A DNA stretch of 37,268 nt from Escherichia phage PEC14. Position 1 is the first letter of the stretch. Each line of letters starts with the position of its first letter. Shown piece after piece: positions 1 through 37,268 of this stretch. The position numbers and the translations under genes are program-made. A model generated the notes under the pieces. That model was not told the DNA's origin. It worked only from the letters and a program-made list of their open reading frames with translations, and did no database searches. Location: the sequence record NC_073051.1; one strand, given 5' to 3'.

Positions 1-1042
1 TCATTGCTTCTCTTTCGATGCGGAAGGTGGTGAAGCCTCTAACCAGCGCAAAGAAGCATTGCAGATTAAATACGAGCACGACCTGGACAAGCTGCACATT
101 ATCGACCTGCAGTCTCGCGGCTGGGATATCACCAGCAAGTCCGGTTTGCGCGAAGTTATCAGCTTTATCAACCGCACCGCTAACGGCGAACCTGTTGGCC
201 TGGTGGCGTTCGACTCACTCAACCAGACTGTTGCGCTGCGGTCCGCCGATGCTAAACCGTTTGACGAGAACAACGCCAGCGATATGGGTGAAGTAGTCAA
301 AGCGCTGAAAGCCATTGCGGAAAACACGGGGGGCAGTGCGGGCGTCATCCACCACCCGGCGAAGGGTGCAAACGGCAGCAGAACCCCACGCGGATCCGGC
401 GCACTGCATGGCGCTGTCGATTCCGCTTTCTTCCTGGAACAGCCGGACGACAACCAACCAGGCCAATTGAACCTGTATCACGAAAAATCACGTAACGGTA
501 TCAAGCAAGCGCCGCGTGGCTTCGTCCTGCTCAAGTGCAAGGTGAAGGTGGATCTCCGCAAGTCAGAAGCGTTCGAGGCGCACCAGTCCACCAGCACCGG
601 TCCGGACTTCGGAGACGTAGTTGCCGGTTGGGACGTCAAACCAATTGCGTCCACCCCGCGCGACGAGACTTTATACCTCGTACCGGTCGCCCTGGCACCG
701 TTCGCTATAGAACAGGCGAAGGCCGCAGGAAAAGCCGCAGTTAAGGAAGAGAACACCGCCGGACCGCGCACCGAAAAAGAAAAGGTACTTTACGCGGCCC
801 TGGAAAAACTGATGGAAGATAACCCGGACCATACTGGTTTCAGTAAATCGGCAATTGTCCGCCAGGCTGGACTCGCGAAGGGTGGCACTTCGACGAAGGC
901 AATAGACGATATGGTCGAGCGCGGCGTGATTGGTTTCTATACAGACCCGCACACCGGGGCCATATATGGGTCATCGAATTTAGTCATTAAATCGGATATC
1001 CCCATTACACTTTCTGCGACCGATGACGACCTGAAAGATTAA
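1..1042 (+). CDS. replicative primase/helicase-type ATPase, C-terminal portion (gene begins upstream of window)
   Basis: Frame of track ORF 59..1042 stays open back to nt 2 with no stop; TTG at 59 is not a credible start. RecA-fold/AAA_25-like signature VIHHPAKGANGSRTPRGSGALHGAVD seen in translation. Confidence 0.5.
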   Translation, partial: HCFSFDAEGGEASNQRKEALQIKYEHDLDKLHIIDLQSRGWDITSKSGLREVISFINRTANGEPVGLVAFDSLNQTVALRSADAKPFDENNASDMGEVVKALKAIAENTGGSAGVIHHPAKGANGSRTPRGSGALHGAVDSAFFLEQPDDNQPGQLNLYHEKSRNGIKQAPRGFVLLKCKVKVDLRKSEAFEAHQSTSTGPDFGDVVAGWDVKPIASTPRDETLYLVPVALAPFAIEQAKAAGKAAVKEENTAGPRTEKEKVLYAALEKLMEDNPDHTGFSKSAIVRQAGLAKGGTSTKAIDDMVERGVIGFYTDPHTGAIYGSSNLVIKSDIPITLSATDDDLKD

Positions 1043-1052
1043 ATTTTGCGCG

Positions 1053-1116
1053 CATTGGTTGCCATTTTGAGTGTTTTTAGCCGGTCGCATTGGTTGCCGT
1101 GTAGTGTGAATATAAT
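1053..1116 (+). promoter_or_regulatory. two copies of CATTGGTTGCC (1053-1063, 1088-1098) followed by TATAAT at 1111-1116
   Basis: Motif read directly; belongs to the ATTGGTTGC family recurring in intergenic regions of this window. Confidence 0.35.
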
Positions 1117-1149
1117 GCATAGTTATGCAATAAAACTGCATAAAGTAAG

Positions 1150-1310
1150 CGGGACAAAAAGCGGGACAGACCAGGGGCGGGACAAAGCGGGACAGCACCC
1201 CTGTCCCGCCCCGGATGACGCGGCCTGGCGGGGAGCGGGACAGGCGGGACAAAGCCCAGTCTTTCAGACTAGACGGGGGTCATTGGCCCCCCTCGTCTGA
1301 GACTGAATAA
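1150..1310 (+). repeat. copy 1 of ~160-bp duplicated element: CGGGACA heptamer array (1150-1200), 35-bp divergent core, 75-bp conserved block (1236-1310) with long imperfect palindrome 1257-1305
   Basis: Direct comparison with 17710-17870: 51-bp block identical except one base, 75-bp block identical, spacing preserved. Confidence 0.85.
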
Positions 1311-1459
1311 AATCCGGGATTGCATAATACACGGCAGCACATTGGAAATCGCGGTCGTCGCTGAACTAGGCAACCAATGCGAGATGCAGAACGGGGTGTG
1401 AAAAATGCAGTTTGCAGTCACAGCAGATAGCGATCAACTTTTTCATGCGCATGATTAAT

Positions 1460-1493
1460 ATTGGTTGCATCCATGCCAGCACCCTGCTAGATT
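1460..1493 (+). promoter_or_regulatory. candidate promoter ATTGGTTGCAT-N17-TAGATT upstream of early gene block
   Basis: TTGCAT at 1465-1470, 17-bp spacer, TAGATT at 1488-1493; about 30 bp upstream of ATG 1522. Confidence 0.4.
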
Positions 1494-1521
1494 GGTCGCA
1501 CACCAACATGAGGACTGAACG

Positions 1522-1827
1522 ATGAAAGCATTAATCTGGAATTACACAACGGCGGTGGCGAAGCTGTACGAAGCGAAGCACACAAACGGCAACGCAGACG
1601 ACGCGCGCCAGGTTGTTATCCTTGCCCAGCAGGGAATAATGAACGCGTTCGACGATATGTTTGCCAGCCTGGACGAACTGGAACCGCTGCGCGTGGCGAT
1701 CTGCGACTACGCGATGGCATTTGCCCGTGAGCGCCTGGCGTATCGCTTCGGGATCGGTGAGACGGCAGTGACAAACGTCGCCAGGATTAAAGCCCAGCGC
1801 GAACTATTCGCCCAGCTTGCGAAATAA
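1522..1827 (+). CDS. hypothetical early protein (101 aa)
   Basis: ATG preceded by GAGGA at 8-nt spacing; no recognisable motif. Confidence 0.5.
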   Translation: MKALIWNYTTAVAKLYEAKHTNGNADDARQVVILAQQGIMNAFDDMFASLDELEPLRVAICDYAMAFARERLAYRFGIGETAVTNVARIKAQRELFAQLAK

Positions 1828-1836
1828 GGGGCCAAA

Positions 1837-2106
1837 ATGGACCGCAGACGAGCTAAACAGCTTTCGTGGCATATTCCGCTGCATTGCATACGAATATGGG
1901 CGCAGAATGCGGTTGAGGGCGATTCTGTGTTCTGGTGCTATCGCGACGATGTGAAGCCATTAACGCAGACTCGCTATCTGCACCAGTTCGCCAGGGAGCA
2001 TGGGCTTGCCATAAAAACGTCCTTGCAACCAATTGGCATCCGTATTACATTACGCCGGAAGCCCGCAGTCGAGCGGGTAGGCAAACACTGGAGACTGAGC
2101 AAATGA
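1837..2106 (+). CDS. hypothetical protein (89 aa)
   Basis: ATG with AAGGGG SD; stop overlaps next start as ATGA. Confidence 0.4.
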   Translation: MDRRRAKQLSWHIPLHCIRIWAQNAVEGDSVFWCYRDDVKPLTQTRYLHQFAREHGLAIKTSLQPIGIRITLRRKPAVERVGKHWRLSK

Positions 2107-2636
2107 AATTACTATTCCGCCGCAAATCCGACGGCAAAATTCTCAGGCCAATACAGACCCTGGCCGCACACGTGCGCCTACACCACGCCGCAAGCGATCG
2201 GGTCTGGTGGGAGTCAAAAGCTAAACTGCCGGAGAAATACGATATCGTCACGCATGATATCGAGCGCGGCGATGTGCTGCGTGATATTCGCGACGGTAGT
2301 ATGCGGATCGTCGAGTATGTCGGTCTTCATGGTCTGCGTATGCAGAACCGCAAGGATGGCGTCGCCGGTATGACTTACTTCGGCCTTGTCAACTACGAAC
2401 GAGTGGGCCGCAAATACAGCCTTAGGGACCGCCAGCAGAATGGGCGCGCCTACGCGACCTACGACTCCCACCAGGTGCAGGCGAAGATGGGCAACGCAGT
2501 ACGCCAAATCGTCAACCGCTTTGATGCCGTGACGAACGCACAGCGCCATGCGCAGGAATATGGCGTTGGATTCATCCAGGTGGAACGAGACGGCAGCATG
2601 AAAGCCATCGACCCGCGCTCGGTGATTCTGAAATGA
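2103..2636 (+). CDS. hypothetical protein (177 aa)
   Basis: Start moved to internal ATG (MKLLFRRK) that forms ATGA overlap with the upstream stop; the track GTG at 1935 would overlap the previous gene out of frame. Confidence 0.5.
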   Translation: MKLLFRRKSDGKILRPIQTLAAHVRLHHAASDRVWWESKAKLPEKYDIVTHDIERGDVLRDIRDGSMRIVEYVGLHGLRMQNRKDGVAGMTYFGLVNYERVGRKYSLRDRQQNGRAYATYDSHQVQAKMGNAVRQIVNRFDAVTNAQRHAQEYGVGFIQVERDGSMKAIDPRSVILK

Positions 2637-2757
2637 GTGCGACTATCCGTGATATGCTTCAGCATAACCGCTTTGAGATAGGCGGTAGGGTGTTTCGCAA
2701 TTACTTCGTGGCGCGTGCATGGGCGCGCCATATTGGCAAACCGGAAGGGGCAATTCG

Positions 2758-3045
2758 ATGTTACACGATGTGATTTATTGGTTTGGTTTGATCTGCGGGT
2801 TGTGCCTGCTTACCGCGGTGCTGTTGGGCGTTCTGATGTTCGTAGTATGGCCCGCTGTGGAAGCCGCCAGCATTACCCGCATGACGTTCGAGATCTACAA
2901 GCGCCGTGGAATAACGGAGCACCCGACCAGGTTGCGCATGTGGTGGCTGTGGTATCGGGATATGATAGGCGGTCGAACATTCGAAGCCGTCCGATCATCC
3001 GGGTGGGAGTGGAAAGGCGTCGGCAAGTGGTCCATTTTCGATTAA
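2758..3045 (+). CDS. small membrane protein (95 aa)
   Basis: Hydrophobic N-terminal segment WFGLICGLCLLTAVLLGVLMFVVW; start chosen at ATG 2758 with GGAAGGGG upstream. Confidence 0.45.
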   Translation: MLHDVIYWFGLICGLCLLTAVLLGVLMFVVWPAVEAASITRMTFEIYKRRGITEHPTRLRMWWLWYRDMIGGRTFEAVRSSGWEWKGVGKWSIFD

Positions 3046-3065
3046 TTATGCAAGCGTGATATAAT

Positions 3066-3097
3066 CCCAGTGAGATAAAACTTACTGGGACTTTTTT
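3066..3097 (+). terminator. rho-independent terminator (hairpin + T6) directly upstream of the holin start
   Basis: cccagtgagataaaacttactggg followed by tttttt. Confidence 0.6.
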
Positions 3098-3388
3098 ATG
3101 GATAAGCTAAACGAGTGGTTATTCGCCCTTGCGTGTCTGGCTGGCGGCTTCGTAGGCGCACGCATTCATGGCGAGGCTACGAAAGGGCCGCTAAACTTCG
3201 TTTTGTATGTTGTAGTTGGCTTCCTGTGTGCCATATTTGGCGCACCGGCTATCGCTGAGTGGGCTGGTTTGTCGGGTGAGCGCACTGTCGCCGGTTTAGG
3301 CTTCGTAACCGCGATCTTCTGGATGCCAATCGCCGACCGGATCAGGGAGACTATTGCGTCGTTCCTACTTCCGGGGGGTGCAAAATGA
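3098..3388 (+). CDS. putative holin (96 aa, three hydrophobic segments)
   Basis: Three predicted TM stretches; immediately upstream of lysozyme gene. Confidence 0.5.
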   Translation: MDKLNEWLFALACLAGGFVGARIHGEATKGPLNFVLYVVVGFLCAIFGAPAIAEWAGLSGERTVAGLGFVTAIFWMPIADRIRETIASFLLPGGAK

Positions 3389-3630
3389 TTATCTCCGTCC
3401 TGTTGTTTGTTATCATAGGGGCTTCGTCCCTGTTTAACGTATATGCGCCGTCCGTTCAGGATGGTATCTTAGGCCGGGTGCTGTATCTGTTAACGGCAAT
3501 GATCTGTCTTATCGGATTGTTGCAAACAGGAGACGTATCTGATACCACCTGGACCGCGTTAATCTGGCTGTTTGCATTGCGCACCCTGCGTAATGCTGTT
3601 TTGAATGGGGTAAAACATGCGATTCAGTGA
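3385..3630 (+). CDS. small membrane protein, holin/antiholin-like (81 aa)
   Basis: Two or three hydrophobic segments; overlaps neighbours on both sides within the lysis cassette. Confidence 0.45.
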   Translation: MIISVLLFVIIGASSLFNVYAPSVQDGILGRVLYLLTAMICLIGLLQTGDVSDTTWTALIWLFALRTLRNAVLNGVKHAIQ

Positions 3631-4108
3631 CAACGGTCTACGATTTACGGCAGCCTGGGAGGCTTTCAGCCCGGTGCCGTATTTCGCGACCAAGAAAGAG
3701 CAGGCCCGCGGCCTGTACACCTGGGGTTATGGTCATACCGGCACTAATCCGCCTCGAAGCATTACCCGCGAGGAAGCGCTGGCACTTCTCAAGCGCGATG
3801 TGGCGTATGCCGAGGATTGGGTGAACAAATACGCACATCCGAGCATTAACCAGGCGCAATTCGACGCGCTGGTGGACCTGGTAATCAATGCCGGTCCGGG
3901 GCCGATCGTACCGGATGACGTCGCGAATGATTTCGATGATGCGGTGCGACTGGGAGACTGGGCGAAGGTCCGTGCTACTCTGCCGCAGTTCCGCAAGCAA
4001 GGTGGGGAAGTGCTTAAGGGTCTGGTACGCCGTGCAATCGGCAGACAGGCGTTGTTTGATGGTAAGCAGTGGGACGTTGCCGAGAAAATCGGGCGTAACG
4101 CTGCATAA
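3617..4108 (+). CDS. endolysin, phage lysozyme family
   Basis: Lysozyme-like N-terminal signature GLRFTAAWEAFSPVPY...LYTWGYGHTG; 163 aa; follows the holin-like genes. Confidence 0.75.
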   Translation: MRFSDNGLRFTAAWEAFSPVPYFATKKEQARGLYTWGYGHTGTNPPRSITREEALALLKRDVAYAEDWVNKYAHPSINQAQFDALVDLVINAGPGPIVPDDVANDFDDAVRLGDWAKVRATLPQFRKQGGEVLKGLVRRAIGRQALFDGKQWDVAEKIGRNAA

Positions 4109-4124
4109 TACGAGGTAACACAGT

Positions 4125-4292
4125 ATGTTAAAAAGCATTCTTGATCATAACGCCGACGCGCTCGCCGCGCTGGCTAAAACCGAAGACCCCGGCGCCCGCG
4201 CTATCATCGCGGACACTATCAACCACGCTGGGGTCTTCGATGCGAAGCTGCCAAGCCCACCACCGCAGGATGCATCCGGCCACGCAGCGTAA
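4125..4292 (+). CDS. small hypothetical protein (55 aa), not in ORF track
   Basis: ATG with GAGGT SD 9 nt upstream, translated by eye; followed by a strong terminator. Confidence 0.3.
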   Translation: MLKSILDHNADALAALAKTEDPGARAIIADTINHAGVFDAKLPSPPPQDASGHAA

Positions 4293-4298
4293 ACAATT

Positions 4299-4326
4299 AA
4301 GCCCGGTTAATTCCGGGCTTTTTATT
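4299..4326 (+). terminator. rho-independent terminator
   Basis: aagcccggttaattccgggctt followed by ttttatt. Confidence 0.7.
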
Positions 4327-4387
4327 GCTTGACTCGCAACCAACATAGACGCCATACTGCGACCAATCAACGAGAGGAGTAATCAAG

Positions 4388-4468
4388 ATGGCACGTAAAG
4401 ATATTTGGGTATTAGCGATCTGGACCACCGCGGCTTTTATCGGCATGGTTATTTGCGAATTGATATAG
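4388..4468 (+). CDS. 26-aa hydrophobic peptide (MARKDIWVLAIWTTAAFIGMVICELI) with strong SD
   Basis: GAGGAG 8 nt upstream of ATG; single TM-like span. Confidence 0.3.
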   Translation: MARKDIWVLAIWTTAAFIGMVICELI

Positions 4469-4481
4469 CCCGCCGCCATAC

Positions 4482-4507
4482 GGACCGTGGTATATTGTCC
4501 ACGGTCC
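4482..4507. other. perfect 9-bp inverted repeat GGACCGTGG-N8-CCACGGTCC without T-tract
   Basis: Read directly; loop contains TGGTATATT. Confidence 0.6.
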
Positions 4508-4529
4508 ACTAATCAGGAATTAATTAAAT

Positions 4530-5672
4530 ATGCACCCGCAAACTAAAATTACCGATGAGCAATTGATCGCAGAAATTCAGGCAGGGACTACGGTTAAAGA
4601 GATTGCGAAGAAATACGGGATTGCCCTGCGCAATGTCTATATGCGCAAAGCCCGCCTGTCGAAAAAGGGAATTGGTCACGGCAATGATGCCGTGATCCGT
4701 AAGCGCGTTGCCGATGGTTTTGGGGTTAAGCGCGTATCGGCCCTGGTGCGCGGAAATGGCGAAGAGGTCATGTCGTGGGTCATCACTGAGCAGGACAAGG
4801 AGCGCCAACTCGAAGCTATGCGCGCTGTTGTCGAGGGTATGAACAGCGAAATCACACCGGCAGCGCCTGTAAACGCCCCGCCAGTACCGATCCAGGCGCT
4901 CGACTTGCTCAACCTGTACACCGTGTCAGACTTTCACCTGGGAATGCTGGCATGGGGTGAGGAGACTGGCGAAGACTGGGATATGGCGATCGCCGAAGAC
5001 TTGTTCTACCGCTGGTTTGTCGAAGCCTTCGCCCGCGCACCGGACGCAGGCACTGCCGTTATCAATATCCTCGGGGATATGGCCCACTTTGATAGCCTGG
5101 ATGCAGTCACCCCGGCAAGCGGTCACGTACTGGACGCCGACACCCGCTACCAGAAACTGGTCCGATACATGATTCGCATGGTGCGCAACGTCGTAGAACT
5201 TGCGCTGCAAAAACACCACAAAGTCAAACTGCTAATCGTCCAGGGTAATCATGACGAATCCGGTATGATTTGGCTTGCTGAGATGTTCAATACCTTGTAT
5301 GAGAACGAGCCGCGCGTCGATGTGGACACGTCCCCGGACGTCTACAAAATGGTGCAGCACGGTAAGACTACGCTATTTTTCCACCACGGGCACAAAGCGC
5401 GATTCGATGTTATCGAGCAGGTTATGATCGCTAAATTCAGACAGGCGTTCGGGTCGAGCGAATACAGCTACGCGCACGTAGGCCATTTGCACCACCAGAA
5501 GATTGTTGAATCCCGCAACATGATTGTTGAACAGCACCGGACGCTCGCAGCGAAAGACGCCTACGCCAGTCGTGGCGGTTGGATGTCTGGTCGCAGCGCC
5601 AACGTCATTACCTACAGCGCCAACTACGGCGAAGTAGCGCGCTTAACCATTAGCCCAGAAATGTTGAAGTAA
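4530..5672 (+). CDS. HTH domain fused to calcineurin-like metallophosphoesterase
   Basis: N-terminal helix-turn-helix-like segment (TVKEIAKKYGIALRNVYMRKARL); phosphoesterase motifs in order DFH, GDMAHFD, GNHDE, HHGH, GHLHH. Confidence 0.65.
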   Translation: MHPQTKITDEQLIAEIQAGTTVKEIAKKYGIALRNVYMRKARLSKKGIGHGNDAVIRKRVADGFGVKRVSALVRGNGEEVMSWVITEQDKERQLEAMRAVVEGMNSEITPAAPVNAPPVPIQALDLLNLYTVSDFHLGMLAWGEETGEDWDMAIAEDLFYRWFVEAFARAPDAGTAVINILGDMAHFDSLDAVTPASGHVLDADTRYQKLVRYMIRMVRNVVELALQKHHKVKLLIVQGNHDESGMIWLAEMFNTLYENEPRVDVDTSPDVYKMVQHGKTTLFFHHGHKARFDVIEQVMIAKFRQAFGSSEYSYAHVGHLHHQKIVESRNMIVEQHRTLAAKDAYASRGGWMSGRSANVITYSANYGEVARLTISPEMLK

Positions 5673-5732: not shown

Positions 5733-5802
5733 CCCCATTAGATGGCAGGGCCGTCTCCTATGTTGCCGATGGTCGGCGCATATGAACAAAAGGGCTTATA
5801 TC

Positions 5803-6354
5803 ATGGCAGAAATCAAAGTTAAGGGCCGACGCGCCAAACTGGACGGACGAGTCGCAGTTACCCCGCGCCGTAAACCCGGCGAGCAAACCGAGCATACCAA
5901 TCTCGGACCTGAAATCGAGTACGGAAAGCGCCGTAAAGGCGGCAAATGTGGACGCCCTACTGACTACCGATCCGTTTACTGCGACCAGCTTCGCCGCTAT
6001 TTTGCCGACGCCGACGCCTGGCAGGTCAACTACTCCGATAAAGGCGCTGCGCAAGTAATACCCCGCAACAAAATGCCAACCTTCGGTCGATTTGCCGCGG
6101 AAATCGGCGTGGGCGTAGCTTGCCTGTATCGCTGGGCGCGTGCGCATGAGGAGTTCGCTGAGGCGATGGCGGACGCAATGGAGTTACAAAAAACCTTCCT
6201 GATGGAAGCTGGTGGCGTAACCATCGCGGCGGGCTTCGCTACATTCCTGCTTAAAGCAAACCACGGCGTCCGCGACGATGTGCCGCTGGATGACGACGAA
6301 GATGATAACGGCGACGTCGTTGTGGAGCCTACCGGCAAAGGCCAGGGTGAATAA
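5803..6354 (+). CDS. terminase small subunit
   Basis: Directly upstream of, and overlapping, the large terminase start; HTH-like segment; acidic C-terminus. Start chosen at internal ATG (MAEIKVKG). Confidence 0.55.
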   Translation: MAEIKVKGRRAKLDGRVAVTPRRKPGEQTEHTNLGPEIEYGKRRKGGKCGRPTDYRSVYCDQLRRYFADADAWQVNYSDKGAAQVIPRNKMPTFGRFAAEIGVGVACLYRWARAHEEFAEAMADAMELQKTFLMEAGGVTIAAGFATFLLKANHGVRDDVPLDDDEDDNGDVVVEPTGKGQGE

Positions 6355-7739
6355 TGCGTAACTATGCGGCAGAACACCGCGCCCTTGAACGAGCGATCGC
6401 AAAGCGAAACAGACCGCCGCGCCCGACACGCGTTGCGCAGGCCGTCCGCCTTTACCGGCCAGATTGCTTGCCGCACCAGGTTGAACTACTGCGCGACACG
6501 AAGACTAAAATCCTCGGCCTGTGTTCCGGCTTCGGCGGTGGAAAGTCGTGGGTCGCTGCGCGTAAGGTCATCCAGCTTTTAACCCTGAACCCCGGTCATG
6601 ACGGCATCGTTACAGAACCGACTATTCCCCTTCTGGTTAAAATCATGTACCCGGAATTGGAAAAGGCGTTTGATGAGGCTGGATTCCGGTGGAAGTTCAA
6701 TAAGCAGGACAAGATCTATAACGTGCTGGTGAAAGGGAAATGGACCCGCGTTATCTGTGAATCAATGGAAAACTATACCCGCCTGATCGGGGTCAACGCC
6801 GCGTGGATTGTTGCCGATGAATTCGACACTACGAAGCAAGACGTCGCGCTGGCGGCATATCACAAACTGCTCGGTCGTCTGCGTGCGGGCTTCGTCCGCC
6901 AGTTCGTCATCGTGTCAACGCCTGAAGGCTACCGGGCGATGTACCAAATTTTCGAGGTGGAGAAAGACAACCAGAAACGCTTGATCCGGGCGAAGACCAC
7001 GGACAACCACCATTTACCGGCAGACTTTATCGACACGCTGCGTAGTCAGTACCCAGCTAACCTGATCGACGCGTACTTGAACGGCCTGTTTGTTAACCTT
7101 ACGTCGGGCGCGGTATACAAGATGTTTAACCGTGAGGAGAACGCAAGCACCGAAGAAGTGCAGCCGGAAGACACGCTGATTATCGGTATGGACTTTAACG
7201 TCACGAAGATGGCGGCGGTTGTGTACGTCAGACGGCAGCGAGTCACCGAGAACAAGGAGTTCCGCGACGAGATTCACGCGGTGGGCGAATTTGTGGACCT
7301 ATTTGATACCCCGGCTATGATTGAGGCGATCGAGGAGCGCTACCCCGATCATTGTGCTGCCGGTCGTGTTGTCGTTTACCCGGATAGCAGCGGCAAATCA
7401 CGCAAGACGGTCAACGCGTCGTCGTCCGATATCGCGCAACTGGAAGACGCAGGCTTTGATGTGGAGTATGACAGCGTTAACCCGCCTGTTAAAGACCGAT
7501 TGATCGCGATGAATACGATGATGTGCAACTCGAAGGGCGTGCGCCAGTATTTTGTCAACCTGGATAAATGCCCTACACTAGCGAAATGTCTGGAACAGCA
7601 GGTGTACGACCTGAAGAAAGGCGAACCGGATAAAACTGCCGGTGTGGACCACATGAATGACGCGGCGGGCTACCCTATTGCGCACTTGTTCCCTGTGATT
7701 CGTCCGATCGCCGTTGTTCCAGCCGTAGAATTCTACTAA
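6354..7739 (+). CDS. terminase large subunit
   Basis: Walker A GLCSGFGGGKS near N-terminus; 461 aa; followed by portal-sized gene. Confidence 0.8.
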   Translation: MRNYAAEHRALERAIAKRNRPPRPTRVAQAVRLYRPDCLPHQVELLRDTKTKILGLCSGFGGGKSWVAARKVIQLLTLNPGHDGIVTEPTIPLLVKIMYPELEKAFDEAGFRWKFNKQDKIYNVLVKGKWTRVICESMENYTRLIGVNAAWIVADEFDTTKQDVALAAYHKLLGRLRAGFVRQFVIVSTPEGYRAMYQIFEVEKDNQKRLIRAKTTDNHHLPADFIDTLRSQYPANLIDAYLNGLFVNLTSGAVYKMFNREENASTEEVQPEDTLIIGMDFNVTKMAAVVYVRRQRVTENKEFRDEIHAVGEFVDLFDTPAMIEAIEERYPDHCAAGRVVVYPDSSGKSRKTVNASSSDIAQLEDAGFDVEYDSVNPPVKDRLIAMNTMMCNSKGVRQYFVNLDKCPTLAKCLEQQVYDLKKGEPDKTAGVDHMNDAAGYPIAHLFPVIRPIAVVPAVEFY

Positions 7740-26794: not shown

Positions 26795-26800
26795 ATGCGA

Positions 26801-27786: not shown

Positions 27787-27788
27787 TA

Positions 27789-28010: not shown

Positions 28011-28040
28011 GGTATCATCACCTATATTTGGTCGAGTTTT

Positions 28041-28074: not shown

Positions 28075-28090
28075 TTACGAGGATTTAGCT

Positions 28091-29927: not shown

Positions 29928-29952
29928 GAGGGGCCATTCGGCCCCTCTTTTT
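29928..29952. terminator. bidirectional terminator between fibre gene and convergent minus-strand block
   Basis: agaggggccattcggcccctct followed by ttttt. Confidence 0.65.
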
Positions 29953-30526
29953 AGTTTGAGTTTTCCCAGTCCATTTTGCGCCGCACAAGCGGGCTTTCGT
30001 AATATTCCTTACCTTCCACTTCCACTAAAGGCCAATCGTTCACGATCACGTATGGCTCTGCTATGTCCTCAATCACACCGTGCGCGCTATGCTGCCCGAA
30101 CGACACACCGACCAGAATAACCCCGGCAACTCGACGTGAAAGATACTCGCGAGCGCAACGGGCCTCAACCAGACCGCGACGGATGCCGCTGGTGGCTTTG
30201 ACCTCATATGTCCAGACGGCATCAATCATATGCTCTTTGTAGTCGGGACCGGATTTTACCTTGCGCTTGCCAACCATGATAATATCGCCGCGGTCGATAG
30301 TGTTAGCGCTAAACAGGCCGGTACGCATTAGCAAACCTTGCGGGATACAGCTACGCCCGCCCGCCTGCCCTTCGAGGTACATGCCCGCAAACATCTCGCC
30401 AAGCACACCGACAAGACGGCTTTGCTTGCACGCGTCAGACTTGTATCGCCACTGGTCAAACTCGATGCTTGCTATCATTGCCGCCAGGTGGAATTGTTTA
30501 CCGGTTATTTCATATTCGCCGTACAT
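29951..30526 (-). CDS. hypothetical protein (191 aa), possible PD-(D/E)xK-type nuclease
   Basis: GAGGGG SD; segment IDAVWTYEVK loosely fits a D...ExK pattern. Confidence 0.45.
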   Translation of the reverse strand: MYGEYEITGKQFHLAAMIASIEFDQWRYKSDACKQSRLVGVLGEMFAGMYLEGQAGGRSCIPQGLLMRTGLFSANTIDRGDIIMVGKRKVKSGPDYKEHMIDAVWTYEVKATSGIRRGLVEARCAREYLSRRVAGVILVGVSFGQHSAHGVIEDIAEPYVIVNDWPLVEVEGKEYYESPLVRRKMDWENSN

Positions 30527-30568
30527 TGTGAACCCCTCATTGATGCGGGCCGAAGCCCGCTATTAGAA

Positions 30569-31090
30569 TTATTTAAGTGCGCCAGTCACCAGTGTTTTTT
30601 CCATGTTACGGAAATCTTCCTGCGTCATGCAGATTTTCGATCCGTCTTCGCCCGTGAGCACGACCATAGGCTGGACGTCCTGGGCTACAACTCCAAAATT
30701 GGCGGCGTTAACCGTCTTGCCAACAGATGAAGAAGGATGCCACGTCCCCGCGACGTCGATGGGCCAACCTTTGAGGCTATCGTATTGCGCTGCCGTTGTA
30801 TCGATCTGAATCTCGTCATGCACGGTCATGTAAGACTCGCCCAGCAGGGCGGCATACGCCACCAGATCCACGATGTTATCTTCCTGGTGTTTACGGTGCT
30901 GGCGCACCAGCTTCAGGCAGATCAGGAAGGTCCAGGCTTCTTGCTCGGACAGGTCGCGCCCGGTAAGCGCGTTAAACACGGCAGCGATTTGTTTAGCGCT
31001 GCGTTCTTCTTTCGCGTTGTCATAGCCGTTTTCTTTCCCGCGCTGTTCCATAGTGGTGGCGGCGTTTTTGCAGTATTCGTATGCTTTCAC
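30569..31090 (-). CDS. hypothetical protein (173 aa)
   Basis: GTG start with AAGGG SD; no motif recognised. Confidence 0.45.
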   Translation of the reverse strand: MKAYEYCKNAATTMEQRGKENGYDNAKEERSAKQIAAVFNALTGRDLSEQEAWTFLICLKLVRQHRKHQEDNIVDLVAYAALLGESYMTVHDEIQIDTTAAQYDSLKGWPIDVAGTWHPSSSVGKTVNAANFGVVAQDVQPMVVLTGEDGSKICMTQEDFRNMEKTLVTGALK

Positions 31091-31137
31091 AGTATTACCC
31101 TTTTTAGTGAGGGGGCTGTATTGCCCCCGACACGTTT

Positions 31138-31167
31138 ACTATAGTGCAACCAATCTATTGGTTGCAA
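31138..31167 (-). promoter_or_regulatory. perfect palindrome TGCAACCAAT-CT-ATTGGTTGCA with TTGCAA-N18-TATAGT
   Basis: Read directly at 31145-31166; overlaps the 3' end of the HAD gene and lies upstream of the gene starting at 31090. Confidence 0.45.
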
Positions 31168-31625
31168 GTGAATTTTGCAACGTTTATCGCGTAAATTTTC
31201 GGGACCAAATCACCACACGCCCGACGAATTGCTGCGATGTTCTTCGGGCAGTCTTCAATGATGACCAGTTCCGACACGTCCGCATAACAGACCATTTTGA
31301 ACACGGCGCACGCCTTAAACTCTGGCGGCGGGGTGTCGTCCAGCATGTGGCGCATAAACAACCTGCCTACCGGGAAGACCTCCAATTGCTCGGCGGTGGT
31401 TTCCCAGCATTCTCGCTGCCGGTTGGTCAGATACGCGATCTCGAAGCCTTGCTCTTTATACATGCGCAGTAGCGGCAGCATATCCATGTTCAGGTCTTCG
31501 CGGACGTGCGCCTTGTGCCACTTCGCCCAAAAGGTGGATTTAGTTTTTACACCCGGCACCAGGTCGGCACGCGCATCGCTTGAACCGTTAATAACGCCAT
31601 CCAAATCGCAAATCAGTAATTTCAT
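31155..31625 (-). CDS. HAD-superfamily phosphatase (possible nucleotidase)
   Basis: N-terminal HAD motif I LLICDLDGVI. Confidence 0.55.
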   Translation of the reverse strand: MKLLICDLDGVINGSSDARADLVPGVKTKSTFWAKWHKAHVREDLNMDMLPLLRMYKEQGFEIAYLTNRQRECWETTAEQLEVFPVGRLFMRHMLDDTPPPEFKACAVFKMVCYADVSELVIIEDCPKNIAAIRRACGDLVPKIYAINVAKFTCNQ

Positions 31626-31826
31626 TTTAAGCTCTCAATAAGGGTGTATCGGGCGCTGCGCGCGGTGAAGGAGTTACACACGAAATGGCAACGCGTGGTT
31701 ATGACAAGCCAGCCGGTAAGATCTAGGCCCAGAATATATTCAGGCCGCGACACGCGACGCACACGATCGCGGCGGGGGTCGATGCAGAAGTCTTTTTGCA
31801 TTTGGTCTACTACCGCAGGGTCGCGG

Positions 31827-32312
31827 TCAACGATTAAGATATTCAAGGAGTTCTCCTTCGCTCATTATTTCAATTTGTGCGCTGCCGGTGGGCGGCGCTT
31901 CGTCAAAGATTATCAATTGCTGGCACTTGTTATTGCTCGGACCGACTTCACCGGTTACAGCATGTATGAATCGGATCCGCCAGTCCAGAAGAATTATCAG
32001 GTTTGCAGTCTTCCGGGCCAGCTTTGCCCACTTCGTCGACGTGTCCTGATTCAGCAGCATGACGGTCCGGCGTCCGTGCGCTGCACACTCGACCCACGGC
32101 AGCGGATCGGAATACGGCGGGTTGCACCACTTCCACCCTTTCAACTCTGACCAGTCCGCCTCAAGCGCGCTGTGCTCTGCCGTGAAGTAACGCGGTAGCA
32201 GGTGGTTGGCATCGCTCGCCGCCATGTCATAACGGAATCGGTACTTCCGGCGCAGCGGTTTAAATAAAGCTGGCGGCGTGCGCCAGCTATCTTTTTGCTC
32301 ACTCTTCTGCAT
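31827..32312 (-). CDS. dam: DNA N6-adenine methyltransferase (phage Dam family)
   Basis: WRTPPALF motif and catalytic NPPYS motif present. Confidence 0.75.
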   Translation of the reverse strand: MQKSEQKDSWRTPPALFKPLRRKYRFRYDMAASDANHLLPRYFTAEHSALEADWSELKGWKWCNPPYSDPLPWVECAAHGRRTVMLLNQDTSTKWAKLARKTANLIILLDWRIRFIHAVTGEVGPSNNKCQQLIIFDEAPPTGSAQIEIMSEGELLEYLNR

Positions 32313-32763
32313 GGTCGGTGTCTATCGCATACAGGGCGATTTTATCGCCGGTTTTGAGAATGCGTTGCACGCGCTTTGTCCCCTCGACACTAAGCGGACG
32401 CGCGTCCGGGTAGAAGCTGCCATTTGTAGGGTTGCGCCACGCCATAAGCACCAAATCTTTACGGTCAACCTTAGACTGGCGACCCTTCGGTCGCACGTAC
32501 TCCTCGGCCCGTTTACAGTGCTCCCGCAACGCCTCAGCCGTGATGCGGTTTAGTGCAACGCTGGTGGTGTATCCGGTGCGCTGCATAATCCCCATCAATT
32601 CGAATAGCAGTCCGAAGCGCTCCGCTAGATCCTGGCGCACTTTCTTCTCTCCTTCATATAGCGCCTGGTTGGTGTCCGCCAACGCGTTCGCACGTTCGGC
32701 CTGTTCGCGGGCTTTAAGGCATTGCGCAGCCCAGTAATCCTTTTCTTCTTGTAAAATTTTCAT
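32299..32763 (-). CDS. hypothetical protein (154 aa)
   Basis: ATG abuts the upstream stop; overlaps dam start. Confidence 0.45.
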   Translation of the reverse strand: MKILQEEKDYWAAQCLKAREQAERANALADTNQALYEGEKKVRQDLAERFGLLFELMGIMQRTGYTTSVALNRITAEALREHCKRAEEYVRPKGRQSKVDRKDLVLMAWRNPTNGSFYPDARPLSVEGTKRVQRILKTGDKIALYAIDTDHAEE

Positions 32764-33006
32764 CTATTTAAACTCCGTTGTGCGGATTTCCTTGCGTGGT
32801 ATAAATTTGCCGTCTTTCTCGACCCAGCAAGTGCCACCGCGCCACTGGGTGTTACGACCTGTTAGTTCTGCGTAGACAATCCGGCATTCATATTTATCGA
32901 GGTTATACGTGCAGGAAATCGGCAGCAGGAGACAAAAGAATAAGAACAGCACCATACACACCCAAAAACGTAAATCCCCGTCGTCGTCAAAAAAGAATCG
33001 TTTCAT
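32764..33006 (-). CDS. small membrane protein (80 aa)
   Basis: Start at ATG 33006 with GAGGA SD; hydrophobic segment FWVCMVLFLFFCLLLPI. Confidence 0.4.
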   Translation of the reverse strand: MKRFFFDDDGDLRFWVCMVLFLFFCLLLPISCTYNLDKYECRIVYAELTGRNTQWRGGTCWVEKDGKFIPRKEIRTTEFK

Positions 33007-33051
33007 GGTTAAATCCTCATATAAAAAAGGGCATCCAAACCGGACACCCTC

Positions 33052-33085
33052 AATATAATGCAACCAATATGATTATGCAACCAAT
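33052..33085 (-). promoter_or_regulatory. candidate promoter: two ATTGGTTGCAT copies with TTGCAT-N17-TATATT
   Basis: Read on minus strand at 33060-33068 and 33077-33085; -10 at 33052-33057. Confidence 0.45.
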
Positions 33086-33409
33086 TTACGCATAAAAGTT
33101 AGGGTCGCGTGCAACGTCTACCAAATACAGATTGCTGATTCGGTTGCCGTAGTGGCCTGGCGTGCGCTGACGGCACACTACGGCATAGCCTGGAGGTATT
33201 GTATTGCCAGTCTCAATGATCCACGCCACGCGTGCGCCAGACAGCGTCTTGCCGTTGTACTCGATACGAGTACCGCCATCGGCAGTGTTAAGGTTGCCAA
33301 TCTTGCTACCGGTAGACTTCAGGCGGATGACGCCCGTTTTACTGTCGTAGGTGAATAGCTGATTGGTCATTGCTACCGAAAAATCGATGGCTTCGAATGT
33401 GGTATTCAT
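33086..33409 (-). CDS. HNH_3/homing-endonuclease-like DNA-binding protein, probably catalytically degenerate
   Basis: Pattern GARVAWIIETGNTIPPGYAVVCRQRTPGHYGNRISNLYLV resembles HNH_3 domains but lacks the His in the catalytic position. Confidence 0.4.
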   Translation of the reverse strand: MNTTFEAIDFSVAMTNQLFTYDSKTGVIRLKSTGSKIGNLNTADGGTRIEYNGKTLSGARVAWIIETGNTIPPGYAVVCRQRTPGHYGNRISNLYLVDVARDPNFYA

Positions 33410-34116
33410 TCTAAATTTTCCTCGTTAACTGCGATTGCGAAGCCGCGCGGGGTGCGCGACCTGATTAGTTTGGTGCGGGCCGATTTGCCTCCGAGGCGAC
33501 TATACTGCTTCGAGTACCCTTTTTCAACGAAAACAGGTTTCTTCTCTGGCATACGGAAGCCGTTGCCGGTCCATAAGCAGGTCAGCTTCGGATATGAATC
33601 GCGGGCGTTGATGTATTCAGGGAATAACGGGTGTACGTCATCCTCTGGCAAATAGCCTCCATACTCCCACGGGTCAAACGAGTGGTCCGGCTTACGCCAT
33701 TGAGTGGAGAGCACGCTGCGCGGATTCTCAATCATATACGGCACTTCGAAGAAATCACCCAGGTAAGCGGCGATCTTCGCGGTGCGCACCGCCTTAAGCT
33801 GGAAGGCAGGGTCGCGGGCGCGTTTGCGCGGGAACGCTGGCGCACCACTAACCGCCAGATCCGTACACGGCGGGAATGCATAGATGATATCCGGCGTGCC
33901 GAAATCACCATTCATCGCGCGGTCCACGAAGTCCAGATCGATAAACTCATTACGATATCGGATACCGCGCCCATAAATCCGGTAGTCCAGGTACGACCCG
34001 TGATCGGCTTCGGAGTAGTTGAAGCAATAACACTTATGCCCCATCTCGGCAGCACGCTCAATCATCAAGCCGCTGCCGTCGAATAATGACCAGATTGTCA
34101 TTTTAGCAATAGTCAT
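33406..34116 (-). CDS. short C5-cytosine-methyltransferase-like protein (236 aa)
   Basis: Motif I-like SLFDGSG, motif IV-like FPPCTDLAVSG with Cys, motif VI-like ENP; no room for a full target-recognition domain. Confidence 0.5.
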   Translation of the reverse strand: MTIAKMTIWSLFDGSGLMIERAAEMGHKCYCFNYSEADHGSYLDYRIYGRGIRYRNEFIDLDFVDRAMNGDFGTPDIIYAFPPCTDLAVSGAPAFPRKRARDPAFQLKAVRTAKIAAYLGDFFEVPYMIENPRSVLSTQWRKPDHSFDPWEYGGYLPEDDVHPLFPEYINARDSYPKLTCLWTGNGFRMPEKKPVFVEKGYSKQYSRLGGKSARTKLIRSRTPRGFAIAVNEENLE

Positions 34117-35537
34117 TTGCGCGCCTTTTTAGCTTTCATATATTCCATCAGGTCGTCCTGAATATCTCGCTTACTGTCTCGACGCTCTGCGACTAGTTCA
34201 TCCAGTGTGCCGCGCGCCTGGATAATGTAGACGAATACCGGACGAGGGTGTCCGGCTTGCATCTGGCGAACTGGCCCGATACGCTCCACGATCTGCGCAA
34301 AGTGCTCATAGTTCCAGGTATCTGAGAAGATAGCAAGGTGGTGCCCGCCATCCTGCAAGTTAAGGCCGTGACCCGCCGATGCCGGGTGCGCGAACATGAT
34401 GGGGATCTCGCCCCTGTTCCACGCTTCCATATCCTTATTGCCTTGCTTACCCTTACCCATCGCTACGCCGTGAGGGAATTTCTTCTTAAGACGTGCCAAG
34501 TCATGCTTGTACTGGTATGCTACGAGCAACGGTGCGCCGTTCAACTCTTCCACGATACTTTCCAGCGCGTCCAGTTTAGCGTCGTGAATTTTCACCCATT
34601 CGTCGGTGCGCTCGCCGTCTTCGTCGACCTTATACACGGCCCCGGAAGCAAGCTGAAGGCACTTAATGGTCTTCGAAGCAGCGTTCGCCGCCTCCACCGT
34701 TCCGCTTTCCAGTTCGGCAAATAGCTCCGCTTCGAACTGGTCATAAATCTTGCGGGCTTTCTTCGGCAGGTCCACAACAACCGGCGTATAGATTGGCTTG
34801 TCACATCCGAAGTATTCAGCCGCGTCAACGGTAAGGGATACGTCAGACAGGCGTTGTTGGATCTCCTTCTCGGAGTTCTTTAGCGGGGCGTGCTGCATAG
34901 TGAAGCTGCCAGGCTTAACAGGCTTGCTAATAAACCAGCGATCCGTAAATGCCTTATAGCTACTGCCGAGGCGTTCGCCACCATCGACAAACCATGTCTG
35001 CCCCCATAGGTCTTTCAGCCCGTTCGGTGCGGGTGTGCCGGTCAGGTTAATCCAGCGCTTGACGTGCTTATGTGCGATCGCTGCCAGCGCACGGGCGCGC
35101 TTGCTCCCCTGCTTGCTACGATAGCCTTTCAGCTTAGTCGATTCATCGGCAACAACGACCGTAAAGGGCCACGCATCGCCGTAATAGTCGACCAGCCACT
35201 CAACCACATCGTAGTTAACACAAACCACGTTAGCGTCGCTCTCAAGCGCCGCAATACGGTCCTTCTCCGGCCCGGTGCCGTCTACGACCAGCAGGGATGA
35301 GAATCGCCATTTCTCCTGTTCCGGGGGCCAGGTGCCGGACGCAACGCGCAGCGGGGCCAGCACCAGTACGCGGTCCTCCTGGCTGGACAGGATACCAGTC
35401 TGGAACATTTTATTCAGCGCCCACATAGTCGCGCCGGTTTTACCCGACCCCATTGTCGCCCATATATTGCATCGCTTATGTTTTAGGATGAACGCGGTTA
35501 TCAACTTCTGATATTCGCGACGTCGGAATCGTGCCAT
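34113..35537 (-). CDS. SNF2/DEAD-like superfamily 2 helicase
   Basis: Walker A MGSGKTGAT, DEx-box VVVADESTK; start chosen at ATG 35537 (MARFRRREYQ). Confidence 0.75.
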   Translation of the reverse strand: MARFRRREYQKLITAFILKHKRCNIWATMGSGKTGATMWALNKMFQTGILSSQEDRVLVLAPLRVASGTWPPEQEKWRFSSLLVVDGTGPEKDRIAALESDANVVCVNYDVVEWLVDYYGDAWPFTVVVADESTKLKGYRSKQGSKRARALAAIAHKHVKRWINLTGTPAPNGLKDLWGQTWFVDGGERLGSSYKAFTDRWFISKPVKPGSFTMQHAPLKNSEKEIQQRLSDVSLTVDAAEYFGCDKPIYTPVVVDLPKKARKIYDQFEAELFAELESGTVEAANAASKTIKCLQLASGAVYKVDEDGERTDEWVKIHDAKLDALESIVEELNGAPLLVAYQYKHDLARLKKKFPHGVAMGKGKQGNKDMEAWNRGEIPIMFAHPASAGHGLNLQDGGHHLAIFSDTWNYEHFAQIVERIGPVRQMQAGHPRPVFVYIIQARGTLDELVAERRDSKRDIQDDLMEYMKAKKARK

Positions 35538-35541
35538 ATCT

Positions 35542-35760
35542 TTATTCCGCCTTTTTCCAGACTTCGGTTTCACTGTTCCAATTCCTCTTAGTGGCGTAAT
35601 AGTATGGGTCGTGCTCAAGGTGCACACCGGTAGCGCGGAAGCTCTGGAACTTTTGCCAGCACACGGTCAGCGGCAGCGGTTTAGCCATTCCTGAAGTAAA
35701 CCATACGCGATCGCCCGGTTTACATTCGCCCAGCTTGGTGAGTCGGTAATGTTCTTTCAT
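35542..35760 (-). CDS. hypothetical protein (73 aa)
   Basis: ATG with GGAG SD; 4 nt upstream of helicase start. Confidence 0.35.
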   Translation of the reverse strand: MKEHYRLTKLGECKPGDRVWFTSGMAKPLPLTVCWQKFQSFRATGVHLEHDPYYYATKRNWNSETEVWKKAE

Positions 35761-35803
35761 CGTCATATCTCCCAAAAATGGCGGGACAAGCCCGCCATAT
35801 TGA

Positions 35804-35977
35804 TTATTCTTGTTCTGCACGATAGCGGCGCTGCCGTTCGCGCTCTTTCTTATTGCGGCAAGACTTGCACTCGGCCCGATGACCGTCTGGACTTCGCGCA
35901 GTCTTGCCGGTGTACTTGTGGAACTGGGATAGCGGCTTGATGCATCCGCAATTACTACAACGTTTTTCTTCAATCAT
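35804..35977 (-). CDS. small zinc-ribbon protein (57 aa)
   Basis: CSNCGC...ECKSCRNK double CxxC; GAGGA SD 8 nt upstream of ATG 35977. Confidence 0.4.
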   Translation of the reverse strand: MIEEKRCSNCGCIKPLSQFHKYTGKTARSPDGHRAECKSCRNKKERERQRRYRAEQE

Positions 35978-36008
35978 TTCTAAAATCCTCGATAGTGCCA
36001 ACCTGCAC

Positions 36009-36042
36009 ACTATACCGCTACGCGACCAATTCAGCAACCAAT
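36009..36042 (-). promoter_or_regulatory. candidate promoter ATTGGTTGCTG-N17-TATAGT inside 3' end of VRR-NUC gene
   Basis: Motif copies at 36022-36030 and 36034-36042; -10 at 36009-36014. Confidence 0.35.
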
Positions 36043-36296
36043 AAATCGCAGTCGGATATGTTGTCGATAACGCGAACGTCAGCACCGCGGCGGGCCATTC
36101 GCTCATGTTCACGTACCTGGTGCGGCTTCGGTTTTCCTCCGGGGCGCTTCACTTCGACGAACACTATTTTGCCGTTGATGATAATAATCAGGTCGGGCGC
36201 ACCTGCGCGCCCCTCCCATGCCAGTTTTCGGCAGAATCCGCCAACATCTTTCACCCGTCTCATCAGGTGACTTTGTATCTTGCCCTCTGGTGTCAT
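36018..36296 (-). CDS. VRR-NUC domain nuclease
   Basis: Segment PDLIIIINGKIVFVEVKRPGGKPKPHQ fits the VRR-NUC D...E.K core; TAATG overlap with polymerase stop. Confidence 0.55.
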   Translation of the reverse strand: MTPEGKIQSHLMRRVKDVGGFCRKLAWEGRAGAPDLIIIINGKIVFVEVKRPGGKPKPHQVREHERMARRGADVRVIDNISDCDLLVAELVA

Positions 36297-37268
36297 TATT
36301 TCCTGTACCTGTACATAATGTCGCCTTCCGCGGCAAGCGGGAAGCCTTTCGCCCAAACAGGCAGGTCGCACATCAGCGCGCACAACTCCTCGGTTGTGTA
36401 GTCGTCAGTATCCGGCACTTCGGTTATCAGTTCATCGTGTACGGACAGTACGATCTCATATCCCGCAGCTTCAACGCCAGGCATGGACCATGCGAGGATA
36501 TCGCGACACAGCGCCTGCACGATGTTTTCCGTGAGTTTGCCGCCGTAGGTGTACTGGAAGCCCCACTGGCGGGTCGTCTGATTCTCGCCCTGATATTTAA
36601 TGCGGGTGCTGGTGCGTTTCTTGCCAGTATCTTCGTCGATCTCGGTCGTCACTGACAGCGCAATGCCTGGATAACTCATGATGCGCCCCGACGGCAACTC
36701 AATTTTCAACCACCACCCCGCGGCGTTCGGATCGTCGCGCTCCTCGTCGAAGGTAGGGTCGTGCTTCGCCTTCGTGCGGACTATCTTGAGCGCTTTCTTA
36801 CCATCCGGGCGAACGTTCGCGCCAGCCCAGTACGCTTTGCCCGGATTGCGGATTGCGCAAAGCACCGCGTCTTCTAGTTCGGCCCAAAATGCCACCGTCT
36901 TCGGGTGCGACTCGCGCCACATACGTTTGATCGCATCACACGTCAGCCATACGTTTTTAGGCAGTATGTAAGTTGGGCGCTCGTCCTTCTTGCCAGGCTT
37001 CGGCGGGCGCTTCGCTTCGTTGATCCGGGCGTACTCATAACCCCGTTTCGCCGCCGCCCAAATGTGACCGGGGAATGTTCCCTTCATCACTTCAGCCATC
37101 GCGTAAAGGTCGAGGCCCAGGTTTTTAGCGAACTGCAAGAACGCAGCCACGCCGCCGCCATAGCCAAGGCCCAATTCGCACGCCTTACCGATCTGGCGTA
37201 AGTCTTTGCGGTTGGCTTTAATGTATTCCGGGTCAAGGCCGAACATCTTACCGGCAGTCTCACAATAA
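36296..37268 (-). CDS. family A DNA polymerase, C-terminal portion (gene continues past window end)
   Basis: Pol A motif B-like RQIGKACELGLGYGGG and motif C VLSVHDELI; frame open to nt 37267. Confidence 0.75.
   Translation of the reverse strand, partial: YCETAGKMFGLDPEYIKANRKDLRQIGKACELGLGYGGGVAAFLQFAKNLGLDLYAMAEVMKGTFPGHIWAAAKRGYEYARINEAKRPPKPGKKDERPTYILPKNVWLTCDAIKRMWRESHPKTVAFWAELEDAVLCAIRNPGKAYWAGANVRPDGKKALKIVRTKAKHDPTFDEERDDPNAAGWWLKIELPSGRIMSYPGIALSVTTEIDEDTGKKRTSTRIKYQGENQTTRQWGFQYTYGGKLTENIVQALCRDILAWSMPGVEAAGYEIVLSVHDELITEVPDTDDYTTEELCALMCDLPVWAKGFPLAAEGDIMYRYRK

Follow-up and report, generated by a model that had tools for sequence, protein, structure and literature searches.

The 37,268 nucleotides of Escherichia phage PEC14 analysed here (sequence record NC_073051.1; "the window" denotes this whole stretch) hold replication genes at both edges and lysis, packaging, head and tail genes between them, with three GC-rich hairpins at the points where genes of opposite strands converge. 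The best match was PEC9 (ON548431.1, 44,379 bp, genus Dhillonvirus), with 4 mismatches across 37,268 bases (99.99%) according to megablast and direct alignment. Window 1421-37268 was directly aligned to PEC9 1-35848 with 3 mismatches and window 1-1420 to PEC9 42960-44379 with 1 mismatch; relative to PEC9, the window is a rotated 84% of the genome that crosses both the end and the start of the PEC9 record. Gene content, gene order and strands are identical in the two. Related sequences were found by megablast in 157-176 of 50,697 phage records, nearly all of them Escherichia or Shigella phages of Dhillonvirus, and an identity of 88-95% to many members together with a common synteny places the window in this genus (HK578/SO-1-like). 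With a probability of about 0.93, we read the window as a rotated 37.3-kb piece of a virulent Dhillonvirus genome of approximately 44.4 kb, a siphovirus of E. coli, with a two-arm layout and reverse cassettes that are closed by hairpins.

The same layout is present in WFI (vB_EcoS_WFI, MK373791.1; Korf et al. 2019, PMC6563267), the most basal member of Dhillonvirus, at an identity of approximately 88-90%; the first reverse island of WFI holds one gene, in contrast to two in the window. Among the related records, identity to the window is 88-91% for those named Acinetobacter phage NJ01 and Campylobacter phage A144, whose host labels are doubtful; the P-GXEC-L2P5 record, 88.6 kb long and with its matches in duplicate, may be an assembly of double length (the three together: OQ221563.1, MG065648.1 and PQ843332.1). 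The features that define the edges, the strand switches and the minus-strand units of the window are the following.

2-1042, plus strand: C-terminal 346 amino acids (aa) of a helicase-primase, cut by the left edge; corresponds to PEC9_56 (PEC9 41737-44001); stop codon at 1040-1042
10781-10801: hairpin 1, in a 14-bp convergent gap; AAGGGGCC-GTAAT-GGCCCCTT, then TTTCGTT; its loop contains the stop codon of the o-spanin
10807-11939, minus strand: minus island 1, with an Nmad5-domain protein (10807-11571) and a protein without assigned function (11610-11939)
26800-26819: hairpin 2, in a 26-bp convergent gap; AAGGGGCC-ATCT-GGCCCCTT, with the degraded tail TTTCTAAT (TCTAAT)
26821-28010, minus strand: minus island 2, the receptor-binding protein (RBP) locus, with a DUF6453 protein (26821-27786) and a Phage_lipoprotein, PF24052 (27789-28010)
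29927-29948: hairpin 3, in a 27-bp convergent gap; AGAGGGGCC-ATTC-GGCCCCTCT, then TTTTAGTTTG (TTTTAG)
29951-36296, minus strand: minus arm, with unassigned open reading frames (ORFs), a HAD phosphatase/PNK-like protein, a Dam methylase, a second methylase and an HNH endonuclease
34113-35537, minus strand: SNF2-type helicase, in the minus arm
36018-36296, minus strand: VRR-NUC nuclease, in the minus arm
36296-37267, minus strand: family A DNA polymerase truncated by the right edge, with the C-terminal 323 aa present; last part of PEC9_46, "DNA polymerase I"

Both edges cut replication genes, as had been proposed in a first-pass annotation of the letters without database searches. At the left edge, an open frame extends from base 2 to the stop codon and matched phrog_3228, "replicative helicase-primase", with an E value of 1.3e-151 over profile positions 413-765 of 766. 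The fragment matched Pfam AAA_25, as did the full-length protein (E 2.2e-19), which identifies a RecA/DnaB-like NTPase core; the part inside the window comprises this RecA-like core from Walker B on and a C-terminal helix-helix-helix-wing region of approximately 90 aa. It weighs against the full name that Pfam detected no family in the N-terminal 350 aa beyond the window, so that "primase" is taken from the PHROG label only; a sequence search of the protein against the PDB gave no match. The fragment at the right edge holds motif B (RQIGKACELGLGYGGG) and motif C (SVHDE) of family A polymerases. By itself it reached 18 bits with Pfam DNA_pol_A, which is below the cutoff, compared with an E value of 2.7e-16 for the full PEC9 polymerase, which also matched the Taq, Bst and Klenow structures with an aligned motif A region and is thus of family A. 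In the Pubbukkers record, the PolA gene (29983-33171) is annotated as intein-containing and measures 3.2 kb versus 2.3 kb in PEC9.

Only PEC9 35849-42959 is absent from the window. Across these 7.1 kb the two edges face each other, and the replication module continues beyond both of them. The stretch consists of phage genes throughout, namely the rest of PolA, an Enc34-type single-stranded DNA-binding protein (SSB), a DUF2800/PD-(D/E)XK nuclease, small ORFs, a 109-aa helix-turn-helix (HTH) protein and the N-terminal half of the helicase-primase; the flanking sequence that the first-pass annotation had recommended to obtain is therewith supplied by PEC9, and it holds only phage genes.

In this layout, two arms diverge from an intergenic region beyond the window (PEC9 41175-41397). 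The minus arm comprises the nuclease, SSB, PolA, the SNF2 helicase, the methylases and related genes and ends at hairpin 3. The plus arm starts with the HTH protein and the helicase-primase, continues past a 479-bp non-coding region through lysis, packaging, head, tail and fibre genes, and likewise ends at hairpin 3, which is the meeting point of the late plus-strand arm and the minus-strand replication arm. Two short reverse cassettes, the Nmad5 island and the RBP/lipoprotein locus, interrupt the plus arm, each with a GC-rich hairpin on its 3' side that is shared with the oncoming plus-strand genes, and each with its own upstream TTGGTTGC motif. There are five strand switches in all. A perfect GC-rich hairpin occupies each of the three convergent gaps (14, 26 and 27 bp), while the two divergent gaps (11940-12078 and 28011-28063) are without one, as expected. 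The minus-strand ORF 4297-4509 (PEC9_8), which would add two further switches if it were real, was rejected as a gene: it had no PHROG match, is not annotated in WFI, and the region measures only 95 bp in Pubbukkers.

The strand switches had been described as consistent with early versus late transcription units, a view that holds for the long minus arm (29951 on), which is made up of replication and nucleotide-metabolism genes, and is only roughly true elsewhere. The plus arm, mostly lysis, packaging and virion genes, opens with early-type genes, and minus island 2 encodes a virion protein. We infer temporal classes of expression, and one sequence motif bears on them. TTGGTYGC occurs 23 times in PEC9 versus approximately 2.7 times expected by chance, an excess of about 8-fold, and 13 of the 20 copies in the window fall within the 6.4% of non-coding sequence (P about 1e-11). 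The sites are as follows.

1055 and 1090: TTGGTTGC pair in the 479-bp non-coding region
1370: single site
1461 and 1492: pair in the same non-coding region
4336 and 4359: pair that faces no gene
11954 and 11968: TTGGTTGC pair of minus island 1
16804: site within the tail operon
28066: TTGGTTGC motif of minus island 2
31146 and 31158: pair at a perfect palindrome (31145-31166)
33060 and 33077: TTGGTTGC pair
36022 and 36034: pair

The motif precedes every minus-strand unit and the HTH/helicase-primase operon, and it does not precede the terminase, head and tail genes. Copies are often paired at a distance of 12-35 bp and face the next gene, and their positions are conserved in WFI. Because many sites read TAnATTGGTYGC, or put TTGC 17-18 nt ahead of a -10-like hexamer, the motif is probably associated with promoters and represents a class of promoters or operators that serves the non-structural units. 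Between the pair at 33060/33077 and the start of the gene at 32764-33006, we also noted a minus-strand hairpin with an 11-bp stem and a T-run (33027-33051), an attenuator-like placement in a 5' leader.

A strict rule, according to which every minus-strand block would be early and every plus-strand block late, draws on the content of the minus arm and on the presence of TTGGTYGC before all minus-strand units including both islands, but it is unlikely to hold. The helicase-primase and HTH genes lie on the plus strand, and TTGGTYGC also occurs in plus orientation before the gene at 1522 and at 16804 among the tail genes. A further objection comes from minus island 2. Its two genes encode a virion receptor-binding protein (DUF6453) and a lipoprotein of the superinfection-exclusion type (PF24052), as assigned from Pfam, PHROGs and the literature (PMC8594841). 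In small siphoviruses, a "bona fide RBP locus" downstream of gpJ has been described, and the RBP loci of Drexlerviridae (T1-like) and T5-like phages consist, as in the window, of a reverse-oriented receptor-binding protein and a lipoprotein downstream of a J-like gene (PMC8594841). Alleles of this locus vary between phages: in Pubbukkers (20713-21926), J is directly followed by plus-strand genes, and the exclusion gene alone has the reverse orientation, which does not fit a strict assignment of strand to time.

The hairpins at the convergent switches had been called bidirectional terminators. Their coordinates were borne out within 1 base, and each lies between convergent stop codons. A core of GGGGCC-N4-5-GGCCCC is common to all three. 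Perfect hairpins, defined by a stem of at least 8 bp with at least 6 GC pairs, are strongly enriched in the window, with 9 distinct ones (12 raw overlapping calls) versus 1.1 +/- 0.8 raw calls in 30 dinucleotide shuffles, and all except those at 32268 and 35778 are intergenic or in non-coding DNA. Further strong terminator-like hairpins within the plus arm, at 4299, 12788, 14000, 16833 and 20586, had been missed in the first-pass annotation. A generic terminator scan of the window remained near chance (30 sites versus 23 +/- 5, and 30 versus 20 +/- 5); it called the hairpins at 10781 and 29927 on both strands, clearly on the plus strand and marginally on the minus strand.

The three hairpins are kept in approximately 30 related loci, and their stems vary there by compensatory changes, from A-T to G-C in hairpin 1 (AGGGGCC/GGCCCCT to GGGGGCC/GGCCCCC) and from G-C to A-T in hairpin 3 (GGGGCC to AGGGCC, the opposite side of the stem being altered to match). 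The T-run on the plus side is kept across the genus even beside an unrelated upstream fibre gene, and hairpin 2 of the relatives has TTTTT. The WFI record has a terminator annotation at each of the three homologous convergent junctions (10418-10436, 26076-26091 and 29415-29430), with a full T-run at hairpin 2 in contrast to the degraded one in the window. We infer that the three hairpins terminate transcription, the features being canonical in the plus direction and less strong for transcripts of the minus strand. Two points weigh against this function: hairpin 2 was not called at 26800, where the stem is perfect and the T-run is too poor for the scan in the window, and the minus-side tails (AATTATTT, CGCATTTA and GATTCATT) are weak. 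The word "bidirectional" in the earlier claim is plausible, with partial support, and is uncertain because of these poor minus-side tails.

As an alternative, the hairpins could be recombination sites at module boundaries or RNA-stability elements. The common core, the missing T-run at hairpin 2 in the window and the position of the hairpins next to the RBP and lateral-fibre alleles, which are the loci most open to exchange, would fit such a role. It is nevertheless quite improbable, given that the plus-side T-run is kept at all three hairpins across the genus despite unrelated flanking coding sequence and that compensatory substitution in the stems goes beyond mere sequence conservation.

The first-pass annotation had argued for a virulent phage, and this call agrees with all of the following. 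Neither the approximately 50 ORFs of the window nor the remaining PEC9 genes matched an integrase, an excisionase or a CI/Cro-type repressor in the Pfam and PHROGs scans. Megablast of the whole window against 5,426 complete E. coli genomes gave no match, and no relative of the capsid protein was found in 185,579 species-representative genomes. SO-1-like phages (Dhillonvirus) have been described as a virulent cluster (PMC9022532). The 109-aa HTH protein (PEC9 41397-41726, beyond the window) has matches to HTH_23 and to a sigma-70 region 4-like domain and lacks a catalytic domain; it is labelled "recombination nuclease inhibitor", "resolvase" or "transposase" and, weakly, "transcriptional repressor" in records and PHROGs, and is probably a small DNA-binding regulator that heads the plus arm. 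A prophage or temperate phage with a lysogeny module in the unseen flanks, for which the "transposase" and repressor labels of this protein and a sub-threshold Cro match of the gene at 1522-1827 (E 0.042) could be cited, is extremely unlikely in view of the complete PEC9 genome without an integrase, the HTH protein without a catalytic domain, the absence from the bacterial genomes searched and the published description of the group.

Apart from this layout, two arrays of a short repeat stand out. CGGGACA is present in 21 copies in the window versus 5.5 expected, and 18 of these lie in two non-coding stretches.

1043-1521: non-coding region of 479 bp
1150-1251, plus strand: CGGGACA array 1, with 6 direct copies and 1 inverted copy, starting 108 bp past the helicase-primase stop
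1256-1304, plus strand: imperfect hairpin of 49 nt that closes array 1; an identical copy closes array 2 at 17816-17864
17555-17811, plus strand: CGGGACA array 2, with 11 copies in both orientations, between the chaperone and tape-measure genes

A 176-bp stretch around array 1 (1136-1310) is 89% identical to 17696-17870. In addition to array 1 and its long hairpin, the 479-bp region contains the TTGGTTGC pair, a TATAAT (1111-1116), an AT-rich palindrome (1117-1130) and the TTGGTYGC pair at 1461/1492. The ORF 1046-1300, which would cover array 1, was rejected as a gene; it had no family match, and the region was taken as non-coding. Array 2 is present in 147 of 157 Dhillonvirus records, two of which mark a "repeat_region" without explanation.

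Similar arrays accompany distant homologues of the helicase-primase. In unrelated contigs returned by a motif-only scan of viral contigs, restricted to multi-copy arrays since bare CGGGACA-N2-5-CGGGACA gave many single chance matches and was too loose for the viral collection, CGGGACA arrays started between -170 and +60 bp, in one case at +286, from the stop codon of a helicase-primase homologue (approximately 21-31% identity by tblastn or alignment) in 13 of 27 array-bearing loci; most loci outside the 13 were cut at the locus edge. Several of these arrays flank AT-rich palindromes. When 80 loci were instead chosen by protein similarity alone, 60 of which had downstream DNA, at least 4 copies of some 7-mer were found from -50 to +350 of the stop in 52 of the 60, compared with 2 of 60 coding controls. 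The repeat varies with the helicase-primase subfamily (CGGGACA, CGTGACA, GGGAACA, ATGGACA, GTCCGAA, GGTCAAA and others). A nine-sequence alignment of the helicase was too diverged for finding loci. An example closer to PEC14 is a Salmonella assembly (GCA_018916215.1, contig JACYAZ010000038) with a 50%-identical helicase-primase, in which GGGGAGA occurs in 8 copies versus 0.9 expected, 7 of them at 1230-1381. Directly past the helicase-primase gene, this contig shows GGGGAGA arrays, an AT-rich core and a hairpin (1224-1585) with the gene order of the window, and it appears phage-like, with no bacterial genes within the 11 kb read.

The C-terminal approximately 90 aa of the helicase-primase align among homologues as helix-helix-helix-wing, with a variable third helix. 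In a model built from eight sequences (pLDDT 45.9 overall), this region reached a moderate 57-76, moderate values being limited to residues ~241-312; a Foldseek search of the model against the PDB returned nothing at E <= 0.001, and the best non-significant fold matches were RecA-superfamily ATPases. A single-sequence AlphaFold prediction of the C-terminal 124 aa (pLDDT 44.6) is usable for the order of secondary structures only.

The arrays are candidate origin iterons because distant helicase-primase homologues carry short-repeat arrays at the stop codon, a position that suggests a replication origin at the arrays. An origin of the iteron type, or a site of helicase loading, is the reading that we consider most likely. 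At even odds, we propose that the CGGGACA copies are iterons recognised by the helicase-primase, probably via its variable C-terminal winged-helix-like region, that 1111-1304 is the origin or helicase-loading site, that the gene-iteron module is family-wide and that array 2 is a second cis element. The module of a gene followed by iterons may run through the large and diverse AAA_25 helicase-primase family in uncultured phages, the iterons co-varying with the protein. It weighs against an origin at array 1 that the GC-skew minimum lies at the divergent region (PEC9 ~41 kb) and not at the array; the skew follows gene orientation. In satellite phage P4, with its alpha protein, ori and crr, and in staphylococcal pathogenicity islands (SaPI), with Pri-Rep and ori, the gene of a multi-domain primase-helicase initiator is likewise followed by short iterons, and P4 possesses a further iteron cluster (crr) at a distance of kilobases, comparable to array 2. 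In contrast to P4 and SaPI, the protein of the window has a RecA-like AAA_25 core and thus belongs to another helicase class, and the iteron sequences are unrelated. By analogy, the second array, which sits inside the tail operon and is unique to Dhillonviruses, may be a cis element like P4 crr. No description of CGGGACA iterons or of the gene-iteron module was found in the searchable literature, where the sequence query gave primer lists only.

A possible, though doubtful, alternative is that the arrays are control sites of late transcription or packaging sites. Array 1 separates the early-type helicase-primase gene from the late genes, array 2 precedes the tape-measure gene, a strong hairpin ends each array, an extended -10 (TGaTACAAT, 17889-17897) follows array 2, and the point at which the PEC9 and WFI records were cut is 170 bp away from array 1; the distant GC-skew minimum would also be compatible with such a role. 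On the other hand, the array starts at the helicase-primase stop codon in 52 of 60 homologue loci irrespective of the genes that follow, AT-rich palindromes are found beside the arrays of other phages, and both TerL and TerS belong to the headful type, for which pac sites are normally found in or near terS.

Reports on the genome ends of Dhillonvirus disagree, which counts against the reading of the window given at the outset. Headful packaging was predicted by PhageTerm for Opt-212 (PMC9022532), while EE09 was reported with a 5' cos end, the sequence of which (ATCTTAAGGG) is absent from the window and from PEC9. The PEC9 and WFI records are both linearised exactly at window 1420|1421, with the start CAGCAGATAGCG. 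Korf et al. (2019) cut assemblies where reads ended abruptly (PMC6563267). The common record start hints at either a physical end or a pac-related pile-up of reads.

PHROGs and/or Pfam scans covered essentially all called ORFs, approximately 50, and gave the following map of the plus arm beyond the features listed above; the tRNA and Rfam scans of the window found nothing.

1522-4292, plus strand: small genes and lysis cassette, with holins (3098-3388 and 3385-3630) and endolysin (3617-4108); function of the small genes not assigned
4530-5672, plus strand: metallophosphoesterase/exonuclease
5782-6354, plus strand: TerS, weakly P22 gp3/Sf6-like
6354-7739, plus strand: TerL of the Terminase_6N/6C type
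7751-9271, plus strand: portal protein
9255-10358, plus strand: head morphogenesis protein
10351-10680, plus strand: i-spanin, overlapping the o-spanin; merely a "hypothetical protein" in PEC9
10562-10792, plus strand: o-spanin with the lipobox LSAC; without annotation in PEC9
12079-17549, plus strand: scaffold, capsid, connectors and tail block, with the major capsid protein (12881-13981) and the major tail protein (16077-16802)
16831-17235, plus strand: tail chaperone G; G-T is made by a -1 frameshift, with T extending to 17549
17934-26794, plus strand: tape measure, minor tail proteins and J-like central fibre (23348-26794)
28064-29923, plus strand: lateral tail fibre

The canonical -1 frameshift site A_AAA_AAC (17226-17232) joins G to T, which are separate genes in the PEC9 annotation. 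The PEC9 record thus leaves the spanins and the G-T frameshift without annotation and labels the portal "minor tail protein". The spanin pair follows the head morphogenesis gene and is separated by 6 kb from the genes for the holins and the endolysin. The match to Nmad5 ("nucleotide modification associated domain 5") has an E value of 9e-59; the gene lies on the opposite strand within the head module and has no neighbouring DNA-modification genes. The lateral tail fibre gene contains three 63-nt tandem copies (28593-28760), of which the second and third are 89% and 63% identical with the first copy.

Public records and papers already cover how Dhillonvirus genomes are organised, their terminators and their virulent lifestyle, and the practical value of the present analysis in this regard is that of a sanity check: edge genes, terminators and lifestyle had been correctly read from the letters alone. 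Only the repeat arrays and the TTGGTYGC motif may be new; no study of Dhillonvirus replication or transcription turned up in the searched literature, where the transcription query drew unrelated papers. The genus is in wide use, both for phage therapy and as part of the BASEL collection. If confirmed, iterons tied to a widespread helicase-primase family, a second array within the tail operon and a genus-wide TTGGTYGC promoter/operator motif would matter modestly, and the arrays and the motif would offer testable starting points for studying how replication is initiated and genes are timed in Dhillonvirus.

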